Shown piece by piece: positions 401 through 45,138 of a stretch of DNA of 64,000 nt; the stretch's first letter is position 1, and every line of letters begins with the position of its first letter. The DNA is from Tubulanus polymorphus. Its lineage: Eukaryota > Animalia > Nemertea. Location of the stretch: NCBI RefSeq assembly GCF_964204645.1, contig NC_134027.1, positions 20,422,560 through 20,486,559 on the forward strand. The letters are read 5' to 3'. The notes below the pieces were generated by a model that saw only the letters and a list, made by a program, of their open reading frames with translations, had not been told where the DNA came from and ran no database searches. A program made the position numbers and the translations under genes.

Positions 401-1022
401 TTACTCAACTATTGATTTATTTGAGGCAGCTATGTCCATCCAATCTCTGGGCAGCATTATTTTTTCGTGGGTTCTATTCTTTTTCTCAATTTGTCCGAAG
501 AAGCGATCACAAGGACCATAAGAATGTCCTTGCTCTAGATATTTCAAGTCCACTCGTTTGTATGCTCCTGAATCAATCAAATATTGGGCATACCATAGTA
601 TACCATAATTCTTATTTTGCCCGCTGCAGTTGTCGGCCCAAATGATCAGGTTGTCAGCACCTAAAGAAAATATATAAAATGAATAAAGATATGAATGTAC
701 TATACATTGGATAACTATCAATTGAAACAGTACTCTAGAGAGAATATAACATTTAAAAAATCGACTCACCAGTGTTCCCGTAACTAGTTTTATTCAACAT
801 AATGTCAATCATGCTGATTACTTCATCAGCACCTTTACCAGCCATTTCTTCGGAATACATGAAACACTTCATGTTTTGGTGGAATCCAGAATAAATTCCA
901 AAATTAAAAGTATATAATTGTCTCATGTAGTAGATGGATTGAGTTGGCATTTTTGGACAGGGTAAGTTTTTCTGAAAATCAATATGGAACGATACGACTG
1001 CCATTCTAAAAGCGTGGTGCAA
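401..1022 (-). pseudogene. Fragment of an intron-containing DDE-type DNA transposase (Sola-like; family uncertain)
   Basis: ORFs 753-1022 and 401-769 carry DFQKNLPCP..YYMRQL..NFGI, WADNCSGQNKN and GHSYGPCDRFFG motifs. A GT..AG intron at 769-661 (minus strand gtgagt...ctttag) joins them in frame. Confidence 0.6.
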
Positions 1023-4000: not shown

Positions 4001-5699
4001 GATCAGGTTGGATATATTACACTAAATACTACACTATTTGCCGCGGCATAGTAGTTGCGGCAGCTTTGACTCTGAGGCACCTAAAAACCGGTGGTATAGC
4101 ACTTGAGATTTTCAGTGTAGGCCACATCCCTCCATCAACTCAGCTCGCATTTGGTTGTTTACAATGTTTACAGGAACACATCTGGCTGACACTAGCTTTA
4201 CACAGTATCACAGATGACGAATTAAGAAAACTTTTTTCATATTTCTTTAATGACATTTTAAACATAGCATTCTTCTTAATTACAATATGCTGATTCTGTA
4301 GGTGTTTTTTGATTAAAATTGCCTCAGTAATATAGGATTTAACAAAAAAATCTGTATTTTCAATTCATCCAATTTTTGTTCTATTTTGATAAAATTTTGA
4401 CACAATATTACTGTATAGTGAGCTTAGATGATACTGAAATTGTGTTACAATTACTAGTAAAAAAGTTTTTTAACCCCCAAAATTATTTACTAGTAGGCTG
4501 CAACTGTTTTGTTTATATACATGTAGTTTTATGACTATAGGCATCCTGTTACTGTACTGTGCCGTGTGTGAAGTGCTGTTTCACTGGATAACTCCTCCCA
4601 GCTTGTCATTCAAAGATTTGATAAATATGAAGAATGCGCTACGTACATTACTAACTTATGCATGAAGGAGGGCTTAACCGAAATTTAAACTATAGTAATG
4701 AATATGTTGCATGTTCACACATATCCTTGACAAAAAGGAGGGTCCAAATCGGATAACTGAAATAGATAATAGGGAAATAACAGTTTTAACCGTTGGAGCT
4801 CTTGACTGCACCATGTGTTCAGAGATACTGCCATGTGTGACAGATGATTGCCCTTTTATGCTGGACGTCGGCCTTGACTTAGATGAGCATTTTTTCATCA
4901 GTAGCTTGAAATCTAACTTTCTTTGAATTCTTGTATCTTCCCATCCCGTGTGTTGTTTTGAGTTTCCTAGTACAAACTATTGAAGGATGAGCAAGATCGT
5001 GCCTGTTGCCATACTGTTACAGATAAACAGGTGGATTCCTGAGTGGACACTAATTGAGAACACAAACAAACCACTCTAGCCACTTGTTCAAAACCAACTA
5101 ACAATGCAGGGGGTATAAGCTTATTTTAAACATTTTAGACTGGATGATAATTCAGTGATTTAGCCATGGACGATTTACTGTGGCGGATCCAGGGGATGAC
5201 CATGGGGGCCCCGACACCACGAAAATTTCCTTCGAATATTCCGGACTGAATATTTTCTGAAGAAAGATCAAAATTACAGTTGAACAGCTAAAAAAATATC
5301 AAATTTTGTTGTGGCAATGACGTAGCTGTTTTACCAATTGGGATTAAACATTTGGCTGTTACCAACACACATTAATGTATATTAATGGACTTTAGCTGAT
5401 ATTGCCTTGGTTTATCTTCTGCATGAAGTCGCTGTGGATGTTTCAATTTCAATCAAAGATGAAAATAATTGATGGATTTTAGATTAAGGGATTAATTTTG
5501 CAATTGTCAAGTCTATCAACTTTATTAATGTTTGGTTTAGCATTTCGTTGGAACACATAAAAAATATTTAAGAAGTGCAAAAACACGCTTGAACTACTGT
5601 AAGATCGGGGTGCGATAACCCTTTAGTGTCAAAAATAGATCAGAGTTTCTGTTTAGATGTCTGGTTTATTCACTCTGCAATATATTAGATTCAAAACAT

Positions 5700-6210: not shown

Positions 6211-6942
6211 TCAGCCTTTCATATAATCATATAATAATGAAAATCCTTGATTGTATTGAGTTTGAATTATACTTGAAATATTTTCATCAGTTACTGTATC
6301 ATATTCTAAACATATATTCGATAATTTATAACTCATATCTTTAACAACGCTAGATAATACAATTTCATTTACAGGAGCAAATGTTATCTCAAATATAATA
6401 TCTTCTTGAATTGCGTATTTATATAAAGGTGCATTATTATTTATCAATTCAAAATCTAATGGAATTTTATATTTGCTTCCATAAATCTTTTTAATCAAAT
6501 TATCTGTGGCACGAGTTACTATTGCGTCATTAGCTCCTGATCTTAATTTATTATGGTTTTCCGATTGGATGCCTTGAAATATCATATTATTTCTATTTTC
6601 TTTAGTTAACCATAAATCTTTATAATGCATAAATAAATTATAATCATCTAATGAGAGAACTGTTTCTGGACCAATCTTTATTGTTAACTTTTTAATCAAA
6701 TATCTTCCAACATTATCAACAACATAATTATTATCATGGCCAGTTACTTTTATATCGGCTGATAAATAAATACTATTTGGAACATAAAAAGTATTTTGTG
6801 TTAATCTAGGAATTCTAACATATAAAGTTTCATCGGGATTAATATTTGAAGGGTTATGAGTAATTATACGATGTGATCTTTCTGCTTTAATAGCATTAGA
6901 TATTCTAGAAATCTTAGAAGGACTTATATAACTCCCACTCAT
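6211..6942 (-). CDS. Major capsid protein (double jelly-roll, Polinton-like virus type), C-terminally truncated
   Basis: ITHNPSNI..LYVRIPRL..YVPNSIYLSADI..DNVGRYLIKKLTIKI..YKDLW..LSNICLEYDTV pattern recalled from invertebrate Polinton-like MCPs. Breaks off at ~6218 after about 240 aa. Confidence 0.7.
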   Translation of the reverse strand: MSGSYISPSKISRISNAIKAERSHRIITHNPSNINPDETLYVRIPRLTQNTFYVPNSIYLSADIKVTGHDNNYVVDNVGRYLIKKLTIKIGPETVLSLDDYNLFMHYKDLWLTKENRNNMIFQGIQSENHNKLRSGANDAIVTRATDNLIKKIYGSKYKIPLDFELINNNAPLYKYAIQEDIIFEITFAPVNEIVLSSVVKDMSYKLSNICLEYDTVTDENISSIIQTQYNQGFSLLYDYMKG

Positions 6943-6966
6943 TTATTAAACAAAAAAATTAATTAT

Positions 6967-8427
6967 TTATTTTTTATTATTTTTTTCTTGATATCTTTTT
7001 GATATCATATTTACTAACCCAAAAATAATAGCACTTACAACTGTGATTAAAAATAAAATAATATGTTCAGCAGCAAAGTTAAGAATATTCCCAGCAGATT
7101 TCAATATAAAACCAACAATTGATGCAATAACTCCAGGTAAAGCTGCAGCAGATTTTTTAGATAGTTCCCATAAATATTTTGCTAATTTCTTTAAACCATC
7201 TTTAACTTTATCTTGTATAGAATTATTATCATTCGGGGGTTTATCCGGTTTATTGGGAGTAGGTGTAGATTTCAAAGCATTTGATATTGCTAAACCAATT
7301 GTTGTAAATAACATAGTTACAGCTGTTAGAATTGAAAGAATTGTTATTCCTTCTAATTTAAATAAAAATTTTATTCTATCTTTCAATGATATTTCAGAAT
7401 CTGGTTTCATCAACAAATCTTTAAAAATAACTTTTAATCTATTAATATTATAATCATATGATTTTAATAATAATTTAATTTCTTCTTTCTGTACTTCTAA
7501 ATTATCTTTTAAATTACTAATTTCTTTTTCTAAACGTAATTCTTTTTGCCTATATTCTATTTCATCAATGACTTGATGATCTAAATCAGACTTTAATTGT
7601 TCTATTTCTTTATTTTTATCAGTTAATTCTTTTTCTAAAGTTCTAATTTTAAAATCTCTTATACTTTTATCATGCGCAATTTTATCAGATGCAAGTCTTA
7701 TACTAATAATCTCTCTAATTGCTTTATCAGAAAATATATCTAAATCTTCTAATTCTTGATCTGTTGCATCAAGTAATCCCTTCGGTAAAAGTTTTTCAGT
7801 TTGAACTTCTCTTGAATTAGGTCTACTAGTTTTGGAAGTTTTATCTTCTTTAGGAATTGTTTCTGGTTCTAAATTTTCATTAATTATCTTAAAAAATTTA
7901 GCATTTCTTTGTTTAAATTCTTTTAAATTATCAGATCTTTCTTTTTGTGTAACATCAGTTATAACATCATTATTGATTTTCTTAATTCTAGATTGTTCTA
8001 ATAAATTAGAAGTTGATTGTGTTATTATTTTATCGGTACTTTTAATATTTGAAATCTTAAAATAATAGTCGCCTTTCAATTCCCAATAATAATCACCATT
8101 AAAATATTTCAAACCTTCTACTAAATAATCCATACCTTTATCTGTTATATTGAAACCAGATCTTTTTAACATTGGTTTAAATTCATCAGTTAATTTGTCA
8201 TATTCTAGTTCTTTTTTCATTAAATATGGATTTTTATTTTCATGATCTATTCTCGATTTAGCTCCTCTAATATATTCATTAGTATCAGGTCTTTCTAAAT
8301 TAGAATTATATGCTGTTTCATTTTCGTTACTGAAACTTGTTTCATCAAAATCAGGTGGTTGTTCATCACTTATACCAGGTTCATCTAAAGGATCCAATGG
8401 AAAACCTTCTCCACCTTCTACGTCCAT
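6967..8427 (-). CDS. Polinton-like virus protein: acidic N-terminus, long coiled coil and C-terminal hydrophobic helices (putative membrane protein)
   Basis: 486-aa open ORF with a heptad-rich middle. Hydrophobic segments GITILSILTAVTMLFTTIGLAI, ALPGVIASIVGFIL and IILFLITVVSAIIFGLV. TAAATG start. Confidence 0.75.
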   Translation of the reverse strand: MDVEGGEGFPLDPLDEPGISDEQPPDFDETSFSNENETAYNSNLERPDTNEYIRGAKSRIDHENKNPYLMKKELEYDKLTDEFKPMLKRSGFNITDKGMDYLVEGLKYFNGDYYWELKGDYYFKISNIKSTDKIITQSTSNLLEQSRIKKINNDVITDVTQKERSDNLKEFKQRNAKFFKIINENLEPETIPKEDKTSKTSRPNSREVQTEKLLPKGLLDATDQELEDLDIFSDKAIREIISIRLASDKIAHDKSIRDFKIRTLEKELTDKNKEIEQLKSDLDHQVIDEIEYRQKELRLEKEISNLKDNLEVQKEEIKLLLKSYDYNINRLKVIFKDLLMKPDSEISLKDRIKFLFKLEGITILSILTAVTMLFTTIGLAISNALKSTPTPNKPDKPPNDNNSIQDKVKDGLKKLAKYLWELSKKSAAALPGVIASIVGFILKSAGNILNFAAEHIILFLITVVSAIIFGLVNMISKRYQEKNNKK

Positions 8428-8443
8428 TTATATAATAAAAAAA

Positions 8444-9832
8444 TTAAAATTTCAAATATAATATTCCTCCGATTACAATTCCTATACAAGTTATAGCTAA
8501 TTTAGTATTTTCATGGGATTTATTGTCATTATCAGTTTTAATTATATCATGTTGAATATTATCAGTTTTAATATTTTCTGTAGTATTGTAATCTTTTATT
8601 TTGGAATCATTATCCAATTCAATATTCTTAGTTTTAGTTTCTGTTGATTGAATATGTTTTTTATTTTTTTCACCTTCCATTAATTTTGGAGCAGTGATAA
8701 TCTTTTTATTTATATCATTTAACCCAAATGAATTATTTATTGTCGCAGTTTTAATTAGATTATTATAACCAATTATATTTCCCATCTTTAATACTAAATC
8801 ATTAGAAATAATTAATAGATTAGGGCCTATACAATAATTTAATCTAATATGTGATTTATCTAAATAATTTTGATATCTAATAATGTTTTCTGGAATCGAT
8901 CTATTTTTATCATTATGTATGGAATCTTCAAATAATACTTTAAATTGTTTTTGTGTATCGAATGATGTATTCAAATTTCCAATTATCGGTGATCTTGTTT
9001 CAACTTGTGATCCTAGAATACAAATCAAATAAGTTCTAATAGATTGATTTATTCTTTCTATACCTGATTTAGTAAAACCTTCACTATTTTCTAAAATAAA
9101 ATAAACCCAACCATTATTGTTTTCTTGTTTTAAATTATCATAAAATTTCGGTAATTTATTGAAATTTAATGTTTCTAAATCCTCAGTTTCTATTTTACCA
9201 TAACCTAATTTATTATTATAGATATTATAAAAACTATTAGATGGTATGGGAAGTGCACAATATGCTGCAACATTTTCAGGGCAAGGAAGTGATCTTATTG
9301 TTCCAATTTTTGTTCTAAAATCAGAATTATTTATATCTATATTAAATTCATTGCAAATTTTATAAAACTTAGATAAATTAATATTACTATCTAATTCTTT
9401 GAAATACCTAGATCCTGGTAAAGCGCACTCTAATTCATTTAATATTATTCTTATTTGAAAGTATGTATGAAATCTAAATAAACTTTGAATTAATTTATAT
9501 TTAGAATTATTCAAATGATCATTCCAACTAATTCCACAACCTGTTGTTGCACAATAAACAGCAAAATTTAATTGGTTCTGCCAATACTTCATATTAGATT
9601 TTAATAACCATTGTTTTTCATCTTTCAATTTTTTAAAATTAATTAAATCTACATGAAATATATTTTCCATCTTTGCATTAAAATTATTAGTTTCAGTAAC
9701 ATAAATTTCTAAATTAGTTAATGAATCTAAAACTTCATTTCTATATGTAATATCTTTATTAAAATCTATTGCTGGAATATTATATTTAATTGATTTATTA
9801 TATTGGAAAGCTTTTGGAAAACTATCTGCCAT
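8444..9832 (-). CDS. Polinton-like virus hypothetical protein with C-terminal membrane anchor
   Basis: 462-aa ORF with MKYWQNQLNFAVYCATTGCGIS motif and C-terminal LAITCIGIVIGGILYLKF. TAAATG start. Confidence 0.75.
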   Translation of the reverse strand: MADSFPKAFQYNKSIKYNIPAIDFNKDITYRNEVLDSLTNLEIYVTETNNFNAKMENIFHVDLINFKKLKDEKQWLLKSNMKYWQNQLNFAVYCATTGCGISWNDHLNNSKYKLIQSLFRFHTYFQIRIILNELECALPGSRYFKELDSNINLSKFYKICNEFNIDINNSDFRTKIGTIRSLPCPENVAAYCALPIPSNSFYNIYNNKLGYGKIETEDLETLNFNKLPKFYDNLKQENNNGWVYFILENSEGFTKSGIERINQSIRTYLICILGSQVETRSPIIGNLNTSFDTQKQFKVLFEDSIHNDKNRSIPENIIRYQNYLDKSHIRLNYCIGPNLLIISNDLVLKMGNIIGYNNLIKTATINNSFGLNDINKKIITAPKLMEGEKNKKHIQSTETKTKNIELDNDSKIKDYNTTENIKTDNIQHDIIKTDNDNKSHENTKLAITCIGIVIGGILYLKF

Positions 9833-9995
9833 TTATATAATTAAAAAATTGATAATTTATTAATTCTTTTAATAATTTATCTTGTTCTTCAACTGTTATA
9901 TGACCATTTAAACTTATTATATAATCTAGTGTGTTCTTTAATTTATTAATTTCTTTTATATTAGTTTTAATTTTTTCTTTATTACTTTTTATATT

Positions 9996-10283
9996 TTATT
10001 TTGAACTTATACCGGTTAAAACACTTGAACTTAATCCTAACACACCAATTGATATAGCTAAAGGTGTTAATGGACTGAATATTGCTAGAAATGTCATTAC
10101 AGAACTAATTGTAACCGAACCACTAATAATAAGATAATATATAATTTTACTTTTTAAATATTTTTTCTTTTTTATCTTTAAGTCACTTTCAAATTCTAAT
10201 ATTTGTTTTTCTAAATATGTTTTTAATTTAGTTTTATTTATATCATGAGGAAAAATATCAATACTATCAACTTTATCTTCCAT
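9996..10283 (-). CDS. Small two-TM protein, probably cut short by a premature stop
   Basis: Two hydrophobic helices. The frame stays open past the TAA at 9996-9998 (NIKSNKEKIK...) to ~9840. TAAATG start. Confidence 0.6.
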   Translation of the reverse strand: MEDKVDSIDIFPHDINKTKLKTYLEKQILEFESDLKIKKKKYLKSKIIYYLIISGSVTISSVMTFLAIFSPLTPLAISIGVLGLSSSVLTGISSK

Positions 10284-10303
10284 TTATTTAGCAAAAAAAA
10301 TTA

Positions 10304-10726
10304 CTAATTAGTAAACTTATAAGCAACAAATATAACAATAACAGTTCCACCTAAAATCCATATTATTTCATATTTCTGTTGTTCTTTACTTGGGGTATAA
10401 TAATCTGATAATTTAGGTTTGTATAGATGTAATTTCTCTTTATTTGTTACTGCGTTATATAAACTCATTGCATCATCAACTAATTGAAAATCTCTATGTG
10501 AAATCTTCTGATCATATAATTCTTTGTTAATATAATCCATATAGTTTTGCCTCTTTTCTCTATATTCTTCTGCAGCTTTATTATATTTCTCTAACGCTAA
10601 GTTATGTCTTCTATGTTCTCCTAATGAACTATTTTTATCAATATGTTTAAATAAATAACCACCACCAGTAAATGCTAAAGCGTTAACAATTGCCGATCCT
10701 ATAATAGTTATAATTGCAGAAGCCAT
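10304..10726 (-). CDS. Small Polinton-like virus protein with N- and C-terminal hydrophobic helices
   Basis: 140 aa, MASAIITIIGSAIVNALAFTGGGYLF...RHNLALEKY...IIWILGGTVIVIFVAYKF. TAAATG start. Confidence 0.7.
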   Translation of the reverse strand: MASAIITIIGSAIVNALAFTGGGYLFKHIDKNSSLGEHRRHNLALEKYNKAAEEYREKRQNYMDYINKELYDQKISHRDFQLVDDAMSLYNAVTNKEKLHLYKPKLSDYYTPSKEQQKYEIIWILGGTVIVIFVAYKFTN

Positions 10727-10750
10727 TTATTTAGCAAAAAAATTATGTAT

Positions 10751-10972
10751 TTATATGGGAGGAATATATTTTTGTTTTTCTAAATAATCAATAGTTAAAT
10801 TAGATAAAGTAACTGCTAACGTTAATTTTAAAATATCATTTATATCAAATCTATCAACATTAACACTTCCCATTTTGAATACTTTTTTTAATACCATTGA
10901 ATAACCAACAGTTCCAACTGATAGTAATGCGCCATTATATAATCCAGTTATTATCCACTTATTATCACTCAT
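10751..10972 (-). CDS. Small hydrophobic viral protein (73 aa)
   Basis: Tight gene packing, TAAATG start and amphipathic helices. Confidence 0.65.
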   Translation of the reverse strand: MSDNKWIITGLYNGALLSVGTVGYSMVLKKVFKMGSVNVDRFDINDILKLTLAVTLSNLTIDYLEKQKYIPPI

Positions 10973-10975
10973 TTA

Positions 10976-11329
10976 TTAATCAAAAAAATTACTATCATCA
11001 AAATAATTAGTTATCTTATTTATGATTAATTCAACATTTATTTCATTACTAGTTTCATTTGTATATATTTCAATTATTATTTTTTTAATATCATCGATGA
11101 TAAAATCTTTATCTAATTCATAAAATCTTAAAGATTCTCTAATTAAATTAGTAATCTTTTCTACATTTAAAGTTTCTTTATCTATTGTTGTTTCATACTC
11201 AAATGTTGTTTCATTAGAAAATGCAATATTTTTAATATGTGTAATTACATCATTAACGTTAAATTTCATTTCTTTCTCACGTTTAAAATCAAACCCAAAA
11301 CATATACTCGGTCCAACAGTTATATTCAT
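10976..11329 (-). CDS. Hypothetical acidic viral protein (117 aa)
   Basis: Tight gene packing and TAAATG start. Confidence 0.6.
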   Translation of the reverse strand: MNITVGPSICFGFDFKREKEMKFNVNDVITHIKNIAFSNETTFEYETTIDKETLNVEKITNLIRESLRFYELDKDFIIDDIKKIIIEIYTNETSNEINVELIINKITNYFDDSNFFD

Positions 11330-11345
11330 TTATATAATGAAAAAA

Positions 11346-12102
11346 TTACTCTTTACATCTTATAACTAATTCATAAATTACAGGAAAGTTATTCAAATCA
11401 ATTAAATAACCATTGTGATTTCTTATTTCTAATTTAAAATTATTAAATTTAGGAATGCATGGTTTGAAATCACATTCTGTTAAATTATAATTTATTTGAG
11501 TTCCAAATTGTTTAACGTTCTTCATTGGTAAAATATTTAATATACTAGAATTACATGTTGTATCTTTAGTTGCTTCAAATGTTTTTGTAGGATCGATTAA
11601 ATTGCAATAAATATAAAAATGTGTAAAAGGTATTATATTTGAATTACCGTCTACGTTTCCTGTAACAATTTGTGGTTTAATTCCTAACAGTTTAGCTAAA
11701 GGTTTCCTTACCATAAATGCATGTTTGCTTTCATCATCTAACTTTATTTTAATTTTATCAGAACTATCACTTTTTATAAATCTAATTGAAAATTTATCTT
11801 CACTTCCAAGTTTTAATCGTGCTCTCCGATTTATTTCTTGGGTAAATGTTTCTAAATTATATAACCCTGGTTTTAAAAATAGATGAAACCATTTATGATT
11901 ATTTTTATTAAAAATTAAAAAGACTATGTTCAAGAGTTTTATCCGATATATTGTAAAATGAGTTACATAAACTTATATTTACTAATTTTAAATCAACACA
12001 ATTCTTAAATTCTCTATCTAATTGTACTAGTAAATTATGAGATTTATAATTTGTAAGCCTTCTAGAATCAACAAATATTCTGTATTCTTTTAATTCTACC
12101 AT
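11346..12102 (-). CDS. Penton/minor capsid-like protein split by a +1 frame discontinuity
   Basis: ORFs 11908-12102 and 11346-11933 carry IFVDSR, LCNSFYNIS, LKPGLYNLE, FYIYCNLID and LEIRNHNGYLIDLNNFPVIYELVI, typical of Polinton single jelly-roll pentons. Confidence 0.7.
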
Positions 12103-12170
12103 TATTTATAACATAAAAAAATTACCGCTCATCACTAAAAATTAATCTTAATAAAATTTTTCCTTAATAA

Positions 12171-13052
12171 ATGGATGAGAAGATAGCATGCGAAATTTGT
12201 GGCGAACTTCTAAGAAAAAGTAATATGGCTCGACATATGAAAAAACATGATGAAAATTATAGACCCCCTAAAATAAACTGCCCAAAATGTAATAAATTAT
12301 TCTCAAGAAATTATGTTAAAAAACATTCAGAGAAGTGTAGAATTAATGGCGCAACGGCTAATGTTGATAGTAATGAAAGTAATAGTAATTCTGCTGAAGT
12401 TGAACCTGAAGTTATTTGGAAAAGACCTTTCTTATTCTATGATAAGGATAATATAAAAGATCATTTCTGCGAGCCTTGTCGAATAAAATATAGCCCTGAA
12501 AATATAGAAGATTGGGAGAATCATCAATTTCGTAAAGTACATATAGATAAAATTTATAATAAATTTGAAACTGAATTTAATGAAAGAAAAAATAATTTAT
12601 TAGAAAAAATAAAATATGAGAAAACGTTACCAGATAATGAAGAAACAGTTGAAAAGTTAGAAAAACAATATAATGAATTAACAAGAAAACCATATTATTG
12701 TAAATATTGTAAATTGATTATTACAACAAGTAATTCAAATCTACATAATAGAACAATAAAACATAAAGAAAACGTAAGAAAATACCAAGAGCTTAATGAA
12801 GATCTATTACCAGTAAATTATAAACGAAAATGTCCACAATGTAGTTATGCGACCTTAAGGCAAGAAGGTACTGTGTTATTTTGTAATGAATGTGGATGGC
12901 AAAAGAATTTATTGGGTGACGAAAAAACTAGAGATTTTCTCATAGATCCAAAATTAAATTATCTAGATGAAATTTTTAAAATATTTTCTATGGAAGATCA
13001 TACACCAGAATATATGCAATGGCTTGAAAAAAATGAAAATAATAGAAAATAA
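12171..13052 (+). CDS. Multi-zinc-finger viral protein
   Basis: CEICG..HMKKH, CPKC..HSEKC, CEPC..H..H, CKYC..H..H and C4 CPQC..CNEC motifs. TAAATG start. Confidence 0.8.
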   Translation: MDEKIACEICGELLRKSNMARHMKKHDENYRPPKINCPKCNKLFSRNYVKKHSEKCRINGATANVDSNESNSNSAEVEPEVIWKRPFLFYDKDNIKDHFCEPCRIKYSPENIEDWENHQFRKVHIDKIYNKFETEFNERKNNLLEKIKYEKTLPDNEETVEKLEKQYNELTRKPYYCKYCKLIITTSNSNLHNRTIKHKENVRKYQELNEDLLPVNYKRKCPQCSYATLRQEGTVLFCNECGWQKNLLGDEKTRDFLIDPKLNYLDEIFKIFSMEDHTPEYMQWLEKNENNRK

Positions 13053-13488
13053 AAATGGAGAAATAACTAAAAAAGATATTATAAAAACAATTATTCCACC
13101 AACATTAAGCACAAAACAAAAGAAAATGTATTTATATTTATTATTTAACGATTATTATGAAAAACCTAAATTAACAGAAGAAGATATGGAAAATATAAAA
13201 AAAATATTCAAACAAATATTAATGTATCATTTGGAAAATAGAATAACAGATTCAATAAATTATGAATTCTTTTTAAATAAGATTGTAAATTATTTAAACA
13301 TCGATATTATAATTCCATTTGATGAATTAACAAACAAAAAGAAACAAAGAGAGCGAGATGAAATGTGGAACAAGATAGAACTTTATTTAAATGAGAGAAA
13401 TGGAATGGAAGAAGAACCTGAACAATTAAATGAAAATGAAGAAGCCAATAGTGATTTCGAGTATGATGATATTGATTTTATGTTTTAA
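12967..13488 (+). CDS. Hypothetical viral protein with acidic tail (true start probably ~13033)
   Basis: Open frame converging on the polymerase stop codon. Confidence 0.55.
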   Translation: MKFLKYFLWKIIHQNICNGLKKMKIIENKNGEITKKDIIKTIIPPTLSTKQKKMYLYLLFNDYYEKPKLTEEDMENIKKIFKQILMYHLENRITDSINYEFFLNKIVNYLNIDIIIPFDELTNKKKQRERDEMWNKIELYLNERNGMEEEPEQLNENEEANSDFEYDDIDFMF

Positions 13489-16400
13489 TAGCCATAAGGT
13501 AATGTTTTTATACCATCATCTAAAATATGCCTTTTATCATCAAATGGATTTAAACTAGTTTTTTCAACTTCATTAATGTACATCTCATGATCTTCTGATC
13601 TTAAACAATTCATTTTGTGTTTCATTACAATTGATTTATATAAACACTTTATATAATCTTGAAATTCTATATGTTTATCAACCACATGTTTTGTTATTCC
13701 TTTTAACTTTTTAGCTTCATGATCTTTTGTTCTGTAACTATACATTTTACTTCTTATCCCAACAAATTCAATCATTTCATCACCCCCTAATTCATCTTTA
13801 AATTTACCAGGAATCTTTTTATTATCATTGCTAAATAGTTCATGATCTTTGGGATAATTGCTAAAATCAAAATGATGTTTTAATGTTTTTAAGTCTTTTG
13901 TTATGTCATTTGTCTTGATTTTTAGTATGTAGGCGTCAGTATTGACCGCTATTAATGGAAATCCACAGTTAAATGTACCATCTTCAGTTGATAAATCATA
14001 AACATAATCTGTTGGGTTATATATTTCAAATAAATCCTTAACTTCTTCTGTTAACTCATTTTCTACATGGCTTAAATTAAAGCAATTTGGTTTAGATTTA
14101 ATCAATCCAATATTCATATTAAATCCTAATGAAGTGCATAATATATTCAATCCTGATATAGCAACTTTTCCTTTTTGAGCTAAAGATATTGTTTTGTGGT
14201 TTTTGAAACTTTTTGAACCATCTGCTGCGTAGAATCCAATGAAGAACCATTTTCTTAAATTATTTTTTGCATTTAATACATAATCTGGAACTATCTTTTC
14301 TTTTGTTGAAGTATTACTTTTAACTATTGCATGAATATAGAATTCATCATTATATTTAATTGCAAAATCTTTAGGGTTATTCACACGTATTCTAAAAACT
14401 GCCGATGATTTCATATGATCCACGATTCTAAATTTTTTATGTGAATAGACTTCTTCACAGAATTTTTTAATTCTTTCTAATAATTTGTTTCTTGATTGCA
14501 TAAATACCAACAATATTGAGTGCGATTAACATATTTATACACACCTGCTGAACCATCACCCATGAAAAATCCTTTGATAAAATATTCTTTTTCTTTTAAT
14601 GTTTCGGGTTCTATATTATAAATATTATCAATAATTTCATCAAATGACATATGATTCATTCTTTGGAAAAATCTTTTATGTAATAATTCATCTCCAATTT
14701 TTATATCAGTTGGTTTTATTTCATCACCATTTCGTTTAATTAAACTATGATCTTCTGTAACATCTACAAATCCTAATTTAGTTCTAACTCTATAGATTTT
14801 CTTATTTGTTTTATGCCTAATAATATTCTTTAAATTTTTCCATCCATTTCTTGTCCAAACATCCATTAAACCATTTATTTGTATTAATTCTTTTTCTCCA
14901 TATGAAATATAACATTCATTTTGTTTTGGAATTATTTCTGAAATTCTTCTTACCAATATTTTATTATTACATTTTAATAATATTGGGGTGTCAGCTGTTA
15001 CAGAATCAAAATATAATATTTCAATATGCTTTTCCCCAAAAAGTGGTTGTAAAACATTATAATAAAAATCATACATTAATAATTTTGATACTTCTAAAAC
15101 AGTCGAACCAATAAACATAGGTTTATTAAATTTCATTGATGTTCTTTTTAATTTAACTGCTGTTAAATAATCTTCAAATCTTTTATTTCCTAAATGTCTA
15201 GGACTTGATTGTAAATGTCTTAATCTTTCAGAATTATTTACTAATTCAATATCATTTCTATTTCTAATATTTTCACATGTTTTACCATAAAAACTATTAT
15301 TCATTAATTTGAAGAAATCTTTTTCAAAATCTGTTTTTGATATGGTTCTCTGTTGAGTATTGAAATCTATATGTTTCTTGTTTTAAACTTTATATTTTCA
15401 GGATATTCTAAATCAACTACAAAGAAATAACCAATTGGTGCTTCATCTTTTAAACTCGCAATTGCGCTTTCCCAATCAGTTTTATCACCATTTTCAACTT
15501 CTGTTAATATAAAATTTTTAAAATCTCCCATAACACCACTAATTCCACCTCTAATTGATTTTTCAAATAATAAAACCATATCTGGTTCTTTTAATAAATC
15601 TAATTCTACATTTTTATATTTTAAACCACATTGCCAGGTTAAACCAGGACTAGAGTAGCAATAACAAGGATCAACATTAAAATGATTCAAATTAACTTCT
15701 CTAAATTTTTCAAATATGTCAGCCAATATCATTACATCTGATTTTAAATATAAATCAACTAATTCACCATGATTTTTCATCTTAAAATGGTTCCAAATAT
15801 TTAATGTTCTATTAAACACTTCATCTTTCACATACTCCTCTTTTAATTGATCATAAAATTGATCTTTTAATAATTTTGTTACATTAAAATCATCATGTGT
15901 TTTATAAAATGAATAAGGAATTGCGCCTTAATATCTCAATAATTTAAAATCTTGTTCCATTGGATAATAATATCGAGTTATAACAAAATCATTATCAACT
16001 AAACTTTTTGATAAATTATCTAATGAACTTGCTAGAAATCTATAAGAATCTAAAAATCTAATGCAACCAAATTGAAATGAAATATAATTTTCGGATGTTT
16101 TAGCTAATAGTTTAAAATCATATTTTCTTACATTTACACCATTCATAGCATCATATTCTTCTATTTCTTGATTAATTGCGCCCAATTTTCCCGATAATTG
16201 TTTTATAAATAGATGGGTATCATATCCTGATAAATTATGAAATATTATTGGTACGAAATTTACTTTTTTAGCTTGTAAATTGCAATCTTCATGAGCAGCT
16301 CCACGATATTTTGAATTCAAATGATCATGATCTCTAACTTTTTTATCAAATGAATAAAAACGTTTTTCACAATAACAACTATGAGTTGCATAATTAAAAT

Positions 16401-18226
16401 CAATAACATCTTCTTTTGTCATAACTATTCTTTTATTTTTGTTTAATAATTTTGTAAAATCACTTTCTAATTCAATCATTTTGTCACAAAAATCATTAAC
16501 TACATTTTCACCTCTAAAAGAAATATATTGACTTTCATATAATTCGGGATAATTTGATTTGATGTAAATTCCATAAGCAGCAGCTCTTTGATGAACTTTT
16601 TTAATTGTATTTATAATTGGTGGGTCTTGTATTGTGTCTTCATTTAATTCATTTCCTTTATCCATTGATTTTAATAATTGCTTTTTGTTATATATTTCTT
16701 TTCTATCTTGATCAGTTAATTCTTTATTCAACGATTCAAAATCCCCATAAATTACAAATGGAACAATATTTTTAAATTTATGATTAGTAAATTTCAATTT
16801 ATAATCTTTTTCTGTTGGCATTATTAATTTACAAAAATCTTTATTATCACATATTTCTTTATGTTTTAGTAACGCATTCTCAGTTCTAAATTTATATAAA
16901 CATTTTCTACATAGATAAATTTTATGGCTGTTAAAATCACTTTCTGTTCTAAAGAATAAATCAATTTGTTTTAACCACATATAATGTTCATTTTCATCTT
17001 TTTTGTAATATAACAAATCTATAGCATTTTCATCATCATAATATTCTGTTAAATATAAAGCTTCCAATGTATAATCTTTAATATTTTCACCTTTTGTCTT
17101 TGGTAATTCCATTAATTCGAATACATTTATTTTTAACTTATTAATTTTTTCTATTTTGGGTATCATTTTTATAGTTACTGGATATTGATCAATTTTATAT
17201 AATGTTTCATATTTCCGATAATCTGTTATTCTACAAACATTTTCCTGTGTTGGATGTAAGCAACTAATAATTGACCATAGAAAACATTTATTATCTTCAT
17301 TTTGAATATTTATTACTGCTTTTGTCGTAAATGGTAATTTAATATAAGATGATGCTTTAATATCCTTTTCTGTTGTAAAGTTTGAATCATTTTTAAACAT
17401 TGTTTTACTTTTTGATGTTATATTTCTTTTTGTATTGTAAACATTTAAATCTAAATATATAATTTCATTCAATGTTAAGCCAGAACCCTCAAAATATCTT
17501 TCTTCAATATGACGTTTAAATCCATTAAATATTTTTTCTAACTTCTCTTTTATTTGTGTTTTTGAAATTATTTCTTCAGAGTGTGTTTGAATATTATAAT
17601 TCATTTTTTCTTCTGACTTTATAAAACTTACTTTCCCAGAGATACTAATTTTTGGATATTCAACATCTGTTATCAAATCTAGTATTTTTTTCTATTATTT
17701 CATTAAATTTACTATAATCTTCTATTGTTGTACCTTTAAAGAATCTAAATATAATAGCCGCAGGACCAATTTTACTATGTAATGTTTCTAAAATTTCAAT
17801 TGTATCTTTTATTTCTAGTGAATCAATATAATTTCTAACATTTTCCATGTAAGGTTTATTTGAAATGGATTTAGTTTTTGAAGTTGGTTTTTTTACTTTT
17901 TGAGGTTTATCATCGAAATAATCTTTTCCTAAAACATTATTACTCAAATTTTGATGGTGTTTTTGTGATTCGAGATGTCTATTATAATTCCTTTTTACTA
18001 TAAATTCATTAGAAACTTCACATTTTATTTCATCCAAATTCATATTTTCTAATCGTTCTTTTCTTTCATTGGAATTTTCTGGAGTTTCAAAATCTATTAC
18101 ATTTTTTATATGATTTGAAGACTTTTCATGACGCGATTTTTGAGATTTATCAATGTATTTTTTACAATATGGACAATGATATTGATTTTCATAAACATCA
18201 ATTTGTTCTGTCTTATTCTCTTCCAT
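13485..18226 (-). pseudogene. polB: Protein-primed family B DNA polymerase (pPolB) with N-terminal zinc fingers, inserted endonuclease VII-like domain and an intein; inactivated
   Basis: SSYIKLP..VINIQNEDNKCFLWS; ExoI IYGDFES; ExoII FHNLSGYD; YLKSDVMILADIFEKFR; motif B KLMNNSFYGK; motif C YFD|TDA; GKFKDE..RSKMYS..KLKGI..FDDKR. Lesions: frameshift ~17670, TAA at 15928-15930, motif A missing (deletion ~15525), a second deletion ~15370, and a frameshift ~14490. Confidence 0.93.
13941..15004 (-). mobile_element. Intein with LAGLIDADG homing endonuclease in pPolB motif C (pol-c site)
   Basis: Block A SVTADTPILL; block B VDVTEDHSL; blocks C/E IKGFFMGDGS and FIGFYAADGS; block F YVYDLSTEDGTFNCG; terminal IAVN followed by +1 Thr (TDA). 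1064 bp with one frameshift near 14490. Confidence 0.93.
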
Positions 18227-18249
18227 TTATAAGGAAAAAAAATTACTTG

Positions 18250-18566
18250 TGGTGATGAGTGGGGATTACTTCCCCCTGTATATAACAAGTGCGCTATTAA
18301 CCGTTCTCACCCAAGCCTCACAGCATCTATTTATCCGGGTACAGTTGACACGCAATCACTGTACTACTACAGTAATAGCACACGCGTTAATAACCGTTCT
18401 CAGTAGAGACTCACTGTATCGATCTATCCACGCGCAGCTGCTGTTACGCGCACTCACTGTATATGTGTGTCACAGAGCAATCGTCCGTTCTCACTAGAGC
18501 CTAGCTGTGATGAGTGGTGTCTCGACCTCTCGACCTCTGATCTGAAAACGCCATCTTCTAATTACT
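18250..18566. repeat. Putative right terminal region/TIR of the Polinton-like element
   Basis: Non-coding and more GC-rich. Short repeats (a)ccgttctca at ~18299, ~18393 and ~18485, and ctcgacct x2. Ends in ATTACT. Confidence 0.55.
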
Positions 18567-20192
18567 AATAGACTTTATAAATTTCTATGCAAACATAACA
18601 TACTGAATACCGCCAATATGGATTTAGACCAAAACACTCTACTACTCACGCAATCACAGAATTTACAGGCTCTATACTACAAAATCTTGAAAAGGGGGAT
18701 CACTCCCTTGGCCTCTTTCTGGACTTATCTAAGGCTTTTGACTCCCTCGATATCAACAAATTATTATTTAAATCATCCCACTATGGTATTCGAGGTCATG
18801 CCTATAATTGGTTCAAATCATATTTATGCAATCGTAAAATATTTGTTAAATTCAATAATGCCTACTCTTCCTATAATACCGTTTCATTTGGTGTCCCACA
18901 GGGATCGGTCCTTGGGCCCTTACTTTTTCTTATTTATGTCAATGATCTTAATCACAACCTCTGCTACACTAAAGCTGTTTCCTTTGCAGATGATACTAAC
19001 TTACTTATTTCCAACAAACATATGAATTTACTATTGCATAATGCTAAAATTGATCTCAATATTATCATTGACTGGTTTAACTCAAATAAACTCACTCTTA
19101 ACATAGATAAGACAAAGTGCTTACTTTTTTCAAAAGATAAAACCATTGACAAATCATTATACAAAATAGTATTTGGAAAACACTCTCTTGAAATAGTAAA
19201 CTCTACTAAATTTCTTGATTTGCTAATTGATGATCGTCTAAATTGGGAACCTCATGTAAAACAATTAATTAACAAATTAAACAAAAATTTATATCTTTTA
19301 AGAAGTTTAAAAAATCTCATTCCCTGCTGGACTAAAAAACTGTTATATATAAGCTATATCCAAAGTCACCTAACGTATGCACTTATTGCGTGGGGGCCAT
19401 TGTTATCATCTAGTCAATCCAAAAGTCTCTTTACTATTCAGAAAAAAGCACTAAGACTCATCGAAAACTCAGCTTATAACGCCCCAACAGGTCCTATTTT
19501 CAAAAAATATAAAATACTTAAATTCCATGATCTGATTCAACTGGAAATTATCAAATTAGGATTTCAAAACACTCATAACTCCCTCCCATCTCCACTGCTA
19601 AATTTATTTCATCATAATTTTAACTTCCACTCCCACAATACCAGACAGTTTAACTACGCGAGAGCTGCTTTCCATAAATCCAAATTATACAGTAAATCCT
19701 TCTTAGCTCAGATGCCTAGTATTTGGCAAAATACTCCGAATGTTATCCGTTCATCCACCAGCATAAATTCACTATCATTCCAATTTAAAAAACAAATATT
19801 ACTGAAATACGCGTAATTATTCATCTCCCGTTGAGGAAAAACTTGGTATGTGTTTAGTCTTAACTAAACTTGACTAGACTGCTATACTAGACTATCTATC
19901 TTTGTAATCATTCTTATCTGTGGCATTTGCTTTCTCCATATTTGTAATCAATCATTATTATTATTATTATCAATCAATCATTATTATTATTATTATTACT
20001 ATTATTATTATTATTATTATTATCATTATTATTACTATTATCATTATTATTATTATTACTATTATTATTATCATTATGAGTATCTTTACCTAAATTACTG
20101 AAATATTAATGGTTATAGTATATTGCCGTAATTATGATTATCATTGTATTTGTATTTGTATAAGTTATTGTTGTCATCATTATTAGAATTTG

Positions 20193-25858: not shown

Positions 25859-26329
25859 TTTAAGAAACTGACCTGTGTCCAGTAGAATAGTAATAGGATA
25901 GTAAATCAGATAGGTGGCACTTAACCCCACCCCTCATTATTGTAGGAAAACTAAACGTTCCGCACTGACTAAAAATTAGTAATAACATTTTAGAAATGGC
26001 CAGAATTTTAACTTAGGTTCTATCTCATTTTTATTTTACAATTGCGATTGGTATAATTTTTTTCAAACGGCCGTTAAGGCTTCATGTTTCGTCTGCAATT
26101 TACTGCAAATAGTTACGCAACTACGCACATTTCAGTGTTTTTGGCAGATGTACACTCGATCGGCACCGTTCGTGACTAGCTTCACTGCGGAATTATCATT
26201 AATTAACATCGCCATATCACATCATCAACTTATATTGTGCCTTAAAACCCTAACAGCCGAAATAATTGAAATGCACACACGATTTCTATCATTGAAAATT
26301 GAGAGAGTGGCCATGTTTGTGTCCTGCTG

Positions 26330-30573: not shown

Positions 30574-31330
30574 CATGTTTCATGTAACAATATCTGGTTT
30601 AATTCCTAACAATTTAGCTATTGGTTTTTTTTTATAATAAAAGAATGTTCATTTTCATCATCTAACTTTATTTTTATTCTATCACTTTTCATAAATCTAA
30701 TTAAAAATTTATCTTCACTTCTAATTTTCAACCGTGCTCTTCTATCAATTTCTAGCTCTAATGTTTCTAAATTATATAATCCTGGTCTTAGATATAAAGT
30801 AACCCATTTGGTTTTTATTTCTAATAAAAATCAAAAAAGCATTATCTTCAGTGGTTTTATTTGAAATATTATAAAAAGAATTACATAAACTAATATTTAC
30901 TAATTTCAAATCAACGCAATTTTTAAATTCTCTAACTAATTGTATTTGTTAATTATGTGATTTTTGATTAAGCAGTTGTCTAGAATCAACAAATATTCTG
31001 TATTCTTTTAATTCTACCATCTATTTTACATATTTTTTTATTCGAAATCTATATCATGACATCCTTGTTCATTCTTACCTTTATATATGAAATAGAAATC
31101 ACCGGAATATAATTCTTCAATATCTTCACTAGATAATCTATGAAATCTATCTGGTTAATATGTTTATCTACAGATTTGACATTTTTAGTATCTTTAATTC
31201 TTTTTAAGAATTCACTGTGTATTTGTTTACTCTCCATTTATTATACATATCTTTCATTAAAATTGATTTTCATATATATGATATTCATTTATATAATGTT
31301 CATATATATGAATATTATTAGAAGGAATGG
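30574..31330 (-). pseudogene. Second, diverged Polinton-like fragment (5' part of penton gene plus small upstream ORF 31049-31237)
   Basis: 30574-31020 aligns with ~11654-12102 (MVELKEYRIFVDSR, EFKNCVDLKLVNISLCNSFYNIS, PGLYNLE). Contains an in-frame stop. Confidence 0.85.
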
Positions 31331-31686: not shown

Positions 31687-34600
31687 ATGGATGACGCGAT
31701 TGAAAGGACTTACGACCAGTTGTTGAAGGGTAGCAAAAAGTGGCATATTCTAACTTATCTTTGTTGGGTAATACCTGCAAACATCGTGCTCGCCCTTTTT
31801 TCGATGTCAGTAGTTTTTACAGGTATGTTCAGGAGATAAAACAAAACAAATCAATTGTTTTAATAGAAACCTGATTATCAATCAATTTGCGCTTTCGAAT
31901 TTCTAGCATTTTCTTCAAATCATATCGTTGCGCTATAAATGTTTGCAGCCGGTGTACCGGATTACCACTGTACAGTCTCTGACAATACATCGCTACCGAG
32001 AAAAAAGAACGGAGAGCCAGAAACTTGTCTCATTTACAGTAATCTAACCTCCGTTAATACAACAGAGAAATGTTCACATTGGACCTATCCTGATAAAGAA
32101 TATGGAGTGACAATCGTGTCTGAGGTAAAACCTTTTTTCTCGATCGCTTTCATCCGTAGTCAGATCAAAGATATTAATAATTAATTAATCCAAGTATCGT
32201 TGAATATTGTCTTTATCATAGTGGGATTTAGTTTGTGACCACAACTACCTCGGTGAACTATCACAGTCATTCTATATAATGGGTGCAATAGCTGCTACGT
32301 TATTGGTATCACCGCTTGCTGATATCTACGGAAGGAAACTTTTATTTTTGGTCATCAATGGTTCACTTGTTTTTACTGGCATTGGGGCAGCCTATGCTGT
32401 GAACTATGCCATGTTTGCAGCATTCCGAGTTCTAAATGGCATGGCTGGCGAAGTAAGCTATTTACCACCTTGTTTTAGATAGTATTCATTATCCTTACAC
32501 GTTGGCCACTACCTCAATATTGATTGTAATCTTGAAACTGATGCGATGTTTTCAGGATGTAAAAGTAGTTACGAAAGAATTATCACAGTGAAGGCTTCAC
32601 CTTTGTGTATCACTGTTATAATGTATAAAAATTAACCACCGGTAGACCTGGGAAATAAGTTGACACCTCTAACCCAATTTCACCTTCCAACTCAGCTTAC
32701 CGTCAAATAAGCGGTATAATGATGAACATTAGTTTGATTACAGGCTTGTTTGATGATTGCTATCGTCGCTGCTGTTGAACTGTTTCCAAAAAATCTACGA
32801 ACGTTTGCCGGCCAGATAATGTTTGTATGGTGGAGTATTGGATTGATGCTTCTTGATTTGATGGCCTACTTTATCAGGAATTGGCGTCACTTACAGCTCG
32901 CAGTCGCAATTATGCCAGTCATAACAATTATTGATATTTGGTTAGTTATATTTAAATCCAATGTGTTTTCTGATTTTGAGGATTCATGTGTCATCTATAC
33001 TTTGGTCAGTGTTTTGTCCCTATCGTTAAAGGTTGATACCGGAATCTGTGCCGTGGCTGTTGTCGAAAGGAAAGGTAGAACAAGCTGAAGAAATCGTTAA
33101 AAAGGCGGCCGCCTTTAATGGAACGTTACTTCCAGAACATCCATTCGAAGAACAAGCTGAAGTAGAAGAAGAAAAAGAACTCGGTCGAATGACACTATTC
33201 CGTGAACCAATTCTTAGACGAATTACGTTCATACTGTTTGCTTTATGGTATGTTTCATCGAGTATGCTAGACACTAGATTGTACTTGCATCTTGAAATCA
33301 TTTCCCTCAAATACCAGGTTTCCAATTTTAAATTTTAAGTTAACGTTATCAAAATCACCCTTTCTCTATTGATCAGGTTTGTCAACAATCTAGTTTACTA
33401 CGGTTTATCACTATCTGCAGCTGAATTAGCCGGTGACCGATTTTTGAACTTCTTCCTTATGGCTCTAGTAGAAATACCCGCTACTATTTGTTGTATGTTT
33501 GTTTTAGAAAGGTAAATGAATTTCACCATTATTCAAATATTAAATCAAATTATATAGGCACCTTAATATAGTCAAACATGGTACATGCAAATCTATAGCT
33601 AATTCTACCTAAGTGCATATTTTGTCCATGTTTTATATTTCAGTCGAGCTGGGAGACGTATATCGTTATCTAGTTTTCATATATTAGCTGGTATTTCACT
33701 AATACTACTTGTATGCGTACCGCCTGTCACAGGTTGGTAAAAAATCATCTGTGTGTATGTGCGTGCGTGCGTGTGTGTGTGTGTGTGTGTGCGTGCGTGT
33801 GTATGTGCGTGCGTGTGCAAAAAACTAAAAATGGCGGATGGCAAGCAGGTGCAGTGACACGTCGCTCCGTTCTTAACTGCTTTTACCAGTAAGTTATCGC
33901 TTAAAGATTTCTAACGGTCGGCAATTTTCTAAACATTTTTGAAAATTTCGTGCAAGCAGGTGCGTTCTGGTGCAATCTGATGCCGATAGGTAGGCTGGTT
34001 CCCGTTTACTTTGCATGTATCGAATTTATTTTAGCAAATGCAGACCATGTGCCGACGTTCGTCGACGTTTGAACGGGCGTTTGAAAAATGGGGTTCGTAT
34101 GAACTACCGAACCCCCTAGGGACGCCCATGAAATATTGTGATTGAATTTGACTCCAGCACCTGTGGGCTAGACCTAAAGACCTAAAGCCGTTCCACATCA
34201 GTAACCACTGCGTACCGTTCAATCTCAATATTAAGCTTTGGCAAATATATTTATAACTATGAGCGACGATTTCCAGGACTTTGCACATAAAGCTTTCGCA
34301 AAACTGGAGACATCAGTCGAAAAATTGAATCAAAACGATGTGCATTCGAATCGAAACTTCTGTCACTCGGTGTAACCAGAGAATGTCGCCTACGAGACGG
34401 AAAGTATAATTTCTACGTGATTTCCGTTTTTCGAACACAATAACTTTTGTTTTGTCAGTATTGATGGTGAGCCTCCACTTTCTACCCAACAAGTGCTTCA
34501 CTGTACTTGCAATCTGCTGTTGTAAAATGAATGCTTAAATGTTCTGTACAAAAGATGTTTTTGTGGAACAATAAAAATGAAATTTGCGTGTGCGTGCGTG

Positions 34601-35444
34601 TGTGTGTCTGTTAAAAACAAGAAAAAAAGATGAAAGATAAGAAGCTTTATTTCTATGTTTTCTCCTGTTTCAGGGAGTGGAACAAATCTGATGCCCTTAG
34701 CTGTATTTTTGACTTTAGTTGGCAAATTCAGTATCGCAGCCTCATTTAATATAGTCGTCCAATATAGTTTAGAATTGTATCCTACGTTGATTAGGTAATA
34801 TTTGAAACTATCACACGCAGCCTTAATATAATATTTCGTCAATCATTAATCATAAAACGTCCAAATTCTAAATATCTTGTTTGGCCAAGTTGATCTATCG
34901 AGTCCTTGCACATGCAATATAAAAAGCCAATCTTAATATTCGTGTATATTGAATTTACTTGACTAAATGCAATAAAGTTGACATATACTTCTTAGAGGTG
35001 TATCATCTTCAAGTAAGATTTAGATTATAATCTAATATTGTTCAATTCAAGGAATACTGGGTCTGGAACGTCATCGTTTACTGCCCCGGTCGCTGGTACT
35101 TTAGCGCCATTCGCAGCTTATTTGGTACGTATATAAATATCAGAAATCAGTCATTTCTTTATTGGTGCAGATGACTGTAACTACCTTAAGTTACTATGAT
35201 GTTTCAGGCGCGTGTGGTGCCGTGGGCCCCCGGAGTTATTTTCGGTGTTATGTCCCTGTTCGTCGGAATTCTGGCTTTGCTGTTACCGGAAACGAGAGGA
35301 CGGTCATTACCGCATACTGTGGAGGATATGAAACAGTGGCACCTACCGAGTTTAACGTGTGGTTCATCGAACAGAAGAAAAAAGATTAAATCCGTAAACG
35401 TTCACAGTAATGGAGAAAAGGGGCAAGCGACTACTTTACTTTGA
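31687..35444 (+). CDS. SLC22-family organic cation/carnitine transporter-like MFS protein, 10 exons
   Basis: Exons 31687-31822, 31949-32124, 32222-32452, 32744-32940, 33032-33247, 33377-33511, 33644-33732, 34674-34794, 35052-35124 and 35208-35444, all GT-AG. Motifs TIVSE|WDLVCD, ADIYGRK, ELFPKNLR, IPES.PWL, ELYPTLIR and LLPETRG. Confidence 0.92.
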
Positions 35445-44396: not shown

Positions 44397-44702
44397 TTAA
44401 TTTGAATTATACAGTTTATTATTTAGCTCATGAATATACGTGTGATTCCTTAATGATTTTTCATTTTTATGCTTTTTATTGCATATTTTACAGCATTTAA
44501 TATTATTCAATCTATCTGAAATATAATTTATATTTTCTTTTAATTCTGTATATCTAATTTTACAGCTATCATAGAATTCTAACAACTGTTTTATAATATA
44601 AACTGAGAATGAATATAAACCTGAAATCATAATAATTGATTTAATATTCTGTTGATTTTTATATATTAGATGTAATATTTCTAATACCTTATTTTCACTC
44701 AT
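44397..44702 (-). CDS. Small protein with a hydrophobic segment and a C2H2 zinc finger
   Basis: CKICNKKHKNEKSLRNHTYIH; tataaaaATG start. Confidence 0.55.
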   Translation of the reverse strand: MSENKVLEILHLIYKNQQNIKSIIMISGLYSFSVYIIKQLLEFYDSCKIRYTELKENINYISDRLNNIKCCKICNKKHKNEKSLRNHTYIHELNNKLYNSN

Positions 44703-44749
44703 TTTTATAGTTAAAATATATAGAATAAATTAAATCAAAAGATGCTGTT

Positions 44750-44971: not shown

Positions 44972-45138
44972 TTATTTAAGAAAAAAATTAATAAATTGAT
45001 AAATATTTAATATTTTAGAAATATTTAACTTTCATATGTTTCAAATCAAATAACAATTAAACTTACTTCCTAACAGTTATTCATTAACTAATTTTTCAAT
45101 GCTTTAACTACTATATATTTGAAACATACAGCTTAATC

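Follow-up and report, generated by a model that had tools for sequence, protein, structure and literature searches.

In animal-type nuclear DNA, a multi-copy Polinton family has a DNA polymerase that is interrupted by a genuine homing-endonuclease intein. Our overall reading, to which we assign a probability of about 70%, is that this intein belongs to one Polinton-specific lineage, which likely had a single old origin in a giant-virus family B DNA polymerase (PolB) and likely persists by homing from filled (intein-bearing) into empty (intein-less) copies. The copy described here lies in a window of 64,000 nt, i.e., the whole stretch of DNA that was analysed, where it interrupts a protein-primed PolB (pPolB). 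The features of the window that bear on this reading are as follows:

13941..15004, minus strand: class-1 intein with a central LAGLIDADG (DOD) endonuclease, in motif C of the pPolB (YFD/TDA)
13485..13940, minus strand: pPolB C-extein (TDA..., K-Y motif, to the stop), 77% to P0430 residues 1187–1337
15005..15382, minus strand: pPolB N-extein piece, from motif B to YFD, 75% to P0430 residues 1063–1188
15367..18226, minus strand: remaining pPolB in three ORF pieces (zinc fingers, HNH/endonuclease-VII-like insert, exonuclease)
18230..18538, minus strand: right-hand end of the element, where the minus strand begins with a short AG-rich repeat; adjoins a LINE reverse transcriptase fragment
6211..6942, minus strand: truncated major-capsid-like ORF (PF16903, E = 0.0018, below cut-off)
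6967..13488: other AT-rich element ORFs (coiled-coil/membrane protein, unknowns, zinc-finger ORF, VLTF3-like ORF)
18599..19816, plus strand: LINE reverse transcriptase fragment on the host side, flanking the element (PF00078, E = 1.9e-24)
32000..34800, plus strand: intron-containing SLC22-like transporter gene (best PDB matches SLC22A6, E = 1.5e-11, and OCT2, E = 9.3e-09)

The insert is 1064 nt long, which is no multiple of 3, and in the window copy it is read in two frames that overlap at 14477–14525. The ORF at 14477–15382 (minus strand) reads ...EILYFD/SVTADTPILL..., which places the intein start at 15004, and the ORF at 13485–14525 (minus strand) reads ...DYVYDLSTEDGTFNCGFPLIAVN/TDAYILK..., which places its end at 13941. 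The insertion point is fixed by the intein-less relative P0430, since this protein aligns on either side of the insert, matching the window up to its own YFD (75%) and again from its own TDS (77%). The window intein contains Ser1 in block A, DVTEDHSL in block B, the two LAGLIDADG motifs GFFMGDG and GFYAADG, YVYDLSTE in block F, a terminal Asn, and a +1 Thr; the residues expected of a class-1 intein (N-terminal Ser, the TxxH of block B, the Asp of block F, C-terminal Asn, and a Thr at +1) are all present. Its N-terminal half exceeds the curated TIGR01445 cut-off (33.1 versus 24.5 bits), and Pfam matches on the two halves both lie below theirs (PF14890, E = 0.0017; PF14528, E = 0.0074). The full intein at YFD/TDA that the earlier note had read from the letters is therefore borne out by the motifs and by TIGR01445, as is its remark that the penultimate His is missing: the residue is Val. 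Among eight intact relatives this position is His in five, Lys in two, and Ser in one, and the His is also absent from many viral relatives. A penultimate His is usual, not universal, in class-1 inteins, and according to the earlier note the Mimivirus PolB intein also lacks it. A class-1 LAGLIDADG intein in motif C of a Polinton pPolB is thus confirmed as a genuine feature.

Three other identities of the insert were considered and rejected. A Hedgehog-type host Hint domain is ruled out by the internal insertion, the endonuclease, and the empty alleles described below; a spliceosomal or group I intron is ruled out by a protein reading throughout, which is in-frame and intact in relatives; and a chance motif match is ruled out by E values as low as 1e-155.

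Raw reads from another study of the same species confirm that this host has both filled alleles and alleles that are precisely empty. Of these reads, 26 (20 starts) skip exactly positions 13941–15004, i.e., the 1064 nt of the insert, and 48 more (29 starts) skip the intein with a flank coding for TDS. At 82% likeness, read depth falls from about 550–720 to 135–260 across the intein, a roughly threefold drop. At 90% likeness, in the 12% of the run that was read, it is about 14–24 in the quietest bins of the flanks and about 185 over the intein, and a rough reading of this difference therefore gives about ten filled copies in the family. The frame break of the window copy is not common to all copies, because reads from other copies vary in length at the break region. 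Differences between reads inside the intein are synonymous in 13 of 23 cases, against 19% expected; these 23 are a biased, best-supported subset (those in the intein and away from the break, among 40 shown of 239), and for the same subset the excess over a 33% expectation reaches p = 0.017 only.

The window intein has its closest relatives in other Polintons. Eight of the nine best matches to the N-terminal half are pPolB-borne inteins (45–64%), and the remainder of the 120 matches listed are in RNA-primed PolBs and topoisomerases. Further pPolB inteins comprise two from a later search, L062/P0461, and three fragments. In all, relatives occur in at least 11 pPolB clusters besides the window, eight of them with an uninterrupted intein of 337–354 residues; the reading frame is kept through the intein in these eight and broken in the window copy. 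The nine full-length pPolB inteins form one clade, with an SH-aLRT support of 100 in a quick tree of 143 rows and 100/100 in a careful tree of 94 rows (thinned from 255 by identity). Ser1, TEDH, both LAGLIDADG Asp residues, the block F Asp, and the terminal Asn are kept in all nine, and PF14528 lies above cut-off in P0003, P0006, P0009, and P0174.

The one-clade grouping rules out a single recent capture by the window copy. The nearest relative of its intein, P0003, shares 61% identity, and because the nearest relatives are other Polinton inteins, the cross-family jump must lie far back, the intein having since spread from Polinton to Polinton. The homing of a giant-virus intein into this very pPolB, as first proposed, accordingly stands for the type of intein (see below) and fails for direct uptake by the window copy.

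For the intact relative P0005, rather than for the window copy itself, a Hint fold is predicted. The pLDDT of this model is mostly above 90 across the intein, its best PDB matches are intein-endonuclease structures (7qsu, E = 8.6e-16), and I-DmoI also matches. Among viral models, NCLDV PolBs match best, with the PolB of Megavirus courdo11 at rank 4 by fold (24%). A DNA pattern for blocks F/G identified 32 loci in metagenomes, 31 in giant-virus-type PolBs and one in a pPolB. A scan of viral and metagenome contigs with patterns for the whole of P0003, drawn from variable stretches, gave no match, and an Atlas search with the intein returned generic LAGLIDADG/intein clusters only. One close pPolB relative, P0432, bears the source label Sulfurimonas sp. 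and is likely a mis-binned eukaryotic element.

Outside Polintons, the nearest relatives are viral inteins at the same site of RNA-primed PolBs (39–44%). All nine pPolB inteins score 234–283 bits against viral PolB inteins and 61–83 bits against 24 hyperthermophile/DPANN-type archaeal inteins, and viral and Polinton inteins together are split from seven archaeal rows with a support of 100/100. At the level of sequence, the Polinton intein is thereby shown to be of the giant-virus type and to occupy the pol-c site, as had been claimed, and it groups with NCLDV PolB inteins rather than with these archaeal ones. A C-terminal block F/G signature, FN[CST]G[FYST]xLI, which was defined post hoc, occurs in all nine pPolB inteins, in one viral clade of 13 rows, and in none of 72 other rows. 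Names of 23 giant-virus MAGs were looked up in supplement 1 of PMC8575486; 13 are listed there, all of them Imitervirales, and the nine listed MAGs that bear the signature comprise eight of IM_01 (mesomimivirids) and one of IM_07. The IM_01 mesomimivirids include haptophyte viruses according to the taxonomy table. Among the sequences compared, which included no named Mimivirus intein, the closest labelled viral relatives of the Polinton inteins are marine Imitervirales of IM_01 and IM_07.

The family is far more diverse in giant viruses, with at least 523 confirmed stretches in giant-virus contigs, than in prokaryote genomes (76 loci, mostly 23–35%) or named phages (two weak matches among 50,697 records). 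From this diversity and the C-terminal signature we infer a giant-virus donor and a transfer from giant virus to Polinton. Alternatively, homing among Polintons could be real but the intein could stem from the PolB of an archaeon, a phage, or an unsampled virus, or it could have passed from Polinton to giant virus. Backbone support in the intein tree is indeed low: the Polinton clade is sister to the IM_01/IM_07 group in the best tree with 52/22 (61/44 without the outgroup), and its placement outside all viral inteins is not rejected by the AU test (p = 0.27). The top non-Polinton match of P0174 and P0175, by 1 bit, is the intein of an archaeal PolB1-type polymerase (L072); furthermore, the inteins compared were collected through their similarity to the query, and no family in the taxonomy table is sampled better than IM_01. 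However, a signature confined to the pPolB inteins and the 13-row viral clade, together with the much greater diversity in giant-virus contigs, argues against these alternatives, which we regard as improbable. For the preferred transfer from a giant virus, co-infection is a plausible route. At the window site, only about 11 of the 18 core bases agree with those of giant-virus sites; the first jump would therefore have required either a nuclease that tolerates mismatches or an ancestor with a closer match.

The polymerase L072 (positions 709–4701; NF004417, 908 bits) comes from an archaeal MAG labelled Promethearchaeota and has a giant-virus-type pol-c intein with 34–43% identity to the Polinton inteins. 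L071 is a further such case, L081–L086 are more distant, and Nitrososphaera records match at about 30%. The same intein family is also found at DQD/TDG of type II topoisomerases (P0008, P0032, P0043, P0050, P0072, P0073, P0079, and others), where it forms its own clade and represents a second non-allelic jump to an xxD/TD site. In addition, the P0015 cluster (P0157–P0162) combines an RNA-primed PolB with a 222-residue mini-intein of the same family on contigs of up to 715 kb; this cluster could represent the genome of a giant virus, either free or endogenous.

Besides this host species, two 90% pPolB clusters hold filled and empty copies side by side. Among 15 listed of the 136 members of the P0006 cluster, seven are filled and four are empty. 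P0006 differs from the empty P0133 at 26 of 1191 positions; eight of the 26 are no more than 10 residues away from the site, and 14 lie in −10 to +60, a range picked post hoc. This distribution resembles what a co-conversion tract would leave. The filled P0143 and the empty P0146, which likewise share a 90% cluster, differ at six of 746 extein residues, with identical flanks and no co-conversion tract. P0009, a member of the other of the two pPolB classes, shares 23–29% identity with the rest in its extein and 42–49% in its intein. Its intein is best read as a probable jump between the two pPolB classes, and the AU test does not force its nested position (p = 0.21).

The main intein subclades track the main extein subclades, which long vertical descent with losses would likewise give. 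It is therefore conceivable that the intein entered Polintons once, early, and then descended vertically with many precise losses, homing having ended by now. The rough agreement of subclades (P0011/P0174/P0175; window/P0003; P0004–6), the similar intein and extein identities within the main class, and the identical flanks of P0143 and P0146 would fit this scheme, which nevertheless demands many exact losses. Only three of the 120 best extein matches are filled, i.e., 117 of these nearest exteins are without the intein, and on the extein tree (119 rows, with filled rows deliberately added and 13 rows dropped for unparsable motifs) the 12 filled rows need 11 changes, against 11.6 with shuffled labels. 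Vertical descent also leaves P0009 unexplained and does not predict either the pile-up of differences at the site or the intact endonuclease motifs in nine of nine inteins; we consider it unlikely. The coexistence of filled and empty alleles, the scattered presence, and the cross-class jump instead point to repeated homing among Polinton copies. In 23 empty pPolB relatives among P0425–P0542, motif C reads YMDCDS and not YxDTDS, and the large subfamily to which they belong also has filled copies; YMDCDS could be a homing-resistant site.

The element that carries the intein in the window is an AT-rich block of 12.3 kb (about 6220–18538). Its left break, at about 6220, lies inside the capsid gene, whose capsid-like ORF has no PDB or PHROG match, and 487 reads run on unlike the window at 6221. 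Near the right-hand end, 714 reads have loose ends at 18547; AG repeats such as the one at 18230..18538 are presumably typical of the start of Polinton ends. Of the two ends that would carry terminal inverted repeats and target-site duplications, the window has one. No integrase, packaging ATPase, or protease was found in the 6.2–18.5 kb piece, a copy cut off at the left, and Polinton membership therefore rests on the polymerase, the weak capsid match, and the one end. PF03175 (pPolB) is weak in the window piece and above cut-off in intact relatives; named pPolB relatives come from two corals (39–43% to P0003), and pPolBs are also present in eukaryote clusters. The window gene contains an in-frame stop near 15928, lacks about 25 residues including motif A, has lost about 75 residues near 15375, and shows more frame changes. 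Judged by its reading frames, the window polymerase copy is a dead fossil, and dead for reasons beyond the broken intein frame. At 12171–13488, two overlapping ORFs facing the polymerase encode zinc fingers and, after these, a VLTF3-like domain (PF04947, E = 5e-5, below cut-off); this is a further gene type that the element and giant viruses have in common.

The window is animal-type nuclear DNA, mainly because it holds the intron-containing SLC22-like gene and, secondarily, retroelement debris. Pfam searches on 100 other window ORFs returned one host gene and retroelement pieces. The debris consists of a decayed LTR-retroelement (reverse transcriptase, RNase H, and integrase), LINE reverse transcriptase fragments, and an ALOG-domain ORF (26245–28665, 18599–19816, 43219–43662, and 46325–46897). 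An AT-rich 2.5-kb element with terminal inverted repeats of about 160 nt and small zinc-finger ORFs lies at 43664–46221; it has an upstream motif (CCATTTATTTA-A-rich) in common with Polinton genes and is perhaps a non-autonomous Polinton derivative. Of the earlier picture of animal DNA carrying an intein in a pPolB, the animal-type DNA and the pPolB both stand, whereas a host gene does not: the intein-bearing gene is a viral/transposon gene within nuclear DNA. That the element might be a contaminant or a mis-joined viral contig, outside the animal genome, is highly implausible. None of the listed reads or contigs spans the element–host junction, yet the window copy is truncated and decayed, its end adjoins a LINE, and a second decayed fragment, 80% identical to element positions 11655–12107, lies at 30577–31026. 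Moreover, the element and its flanks are both present in four runs of one study and in the raw reads of another from the same species, where the depth of the element is about ten times that of the flanks.

A mechanism can be proposed from these features. In intact copies, splicing would start with an N–O shift at Ser1, aided by the block B Thr and His, and proceed through attack by the +1 Thr and then Asn cyclisation. As the catalytic YxD-TD motif is interrupted by the insert, the polymerase would be active only after splicing. The LAGLIDADG intein, once freed, would then cleave other copies at their empty YxD-TD[S/A] site; with a filled copy as the repair template, the intein would be carried over together with some flank. 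Protein splicing of intact copies is probable from their motifs, the chemistry of intein splicing being established and predicting splicing from such residues in the pertinent part of PMC7765530; cleavage of the empty site and homing would likewise be expected from sequence. We propose that the intein persists in an animal genome, unlike in single-copy host genes, because a multi-copy element keeps supplying empty sites. We give even odds to a bolder account, namely that this is a live animal intein lineage: a giant-virus intein crossed to pPolBs, jumped between both of their classes, and now homes in germ lines as a gene drive within a transposon/virus family, recording that Polinton ancestors shared cells with Imitervirales.

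To date, the closest known counterparts are the NCLDV PolB inteins at pol-c (site III), e.g., Mimivirus R322 (described in the relevant section of PMC549080, which also notes an intein in an insect iridovirus) and those of uncultured Imitervirales. They share with the window and Polinton inteins the motif C site, Ser1/Asn/+1 Thr, the block B Thr-His, the LAGLIDADG domain, a length of about 350 residues, and 39–44% identity to the best relatives. They differ in their host, an RNA-primed PolB, whereas the Polinton inteins form their own clade and reside in a pPolB with little similarity to it, in an integrating multi-copy element of animal DNA. Archaeal pol-c inteins (PI-PkoII-like) are alike in insertion site and fold but share 23–29% identity and form a separate clade on a long branch.

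Nuclease domains within Polinton polymerases have been described as HNH/VSR insertions in pPolB (Jeong et al., 10.1101/2023.08.22.554363; Krupovic et al., PMC11071308), which the available text of Krupovic et al. (PMC11071308) suggests to stem from intein invasions. As described in the available text of these sources, such inserts are without a Hint domain and have other nuclease folds and sites, and that of Jeong et al. (10.1101/2023.08.22.554363) names HNH and VSR and no LAGLIDADG or Hint; in contrast, the insert described here is a complete intein that interrupts the catalytic motif and whose site is found both filled and empty. The window pPolB bears an HNH-like insert in addition to its intein. 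Virus-like PolBs on nuclear scaffolds of algae and labyrinthulids also contain inteins, as does Anaeramoeba (PMC10710043). These inteins are similar in being virus-derived, located in nuclear DNA, and proposed to spread non-allelically, but they concern protists and algae and giant-virus-type polymerases, and the main text of that paper is without the terms Polinton, Maverick, animal, and metazoa.

Eukaryotic inteins are placed in fungi, algae, some protists, and large DNA viruses, not animals, in the passages on their distribution in PMC5784728 and PMC7765530, the list in PMC5784728 giving fungi, algae, and large DNA viruses. The word "intein" is absent from the main texts of PMC8502044 and two 2026 preprints, and the available texts of PMC12220804, PMC3671162, PMC5718144, PMC13768754, and PMC9939771 mention inteins only generally. 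Searches of the open full-text literature, chiefly main texts, in which an earlier annotation could have escaped notice, returned no Polinton pPolB or other pPolB described as carrying an intein with a Hint domain, and thus no prior annotation of the kind the earlier note had asked about. What is new is a known intein family in a new host-protein class, the pPolB, and in animal-type nuclear DNA. The core idea of the earlier note holds, the event being older and wider than the window copy.

These results reveal that Polintons carry an entire family of inteins in animal-type nuclear DNA, although inteins were thought to be missing from animals, and they supply a concrete case for the proposed intein invasion of Polinton polymerases. 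They also speak for homing across very distant PolB families via the short conserved motif C. Gene finders will mis-size intein-bearing Polinton polymerases, and the natural pairs of filled and empty alleles offer material for asking why animal host genes are without inteins.
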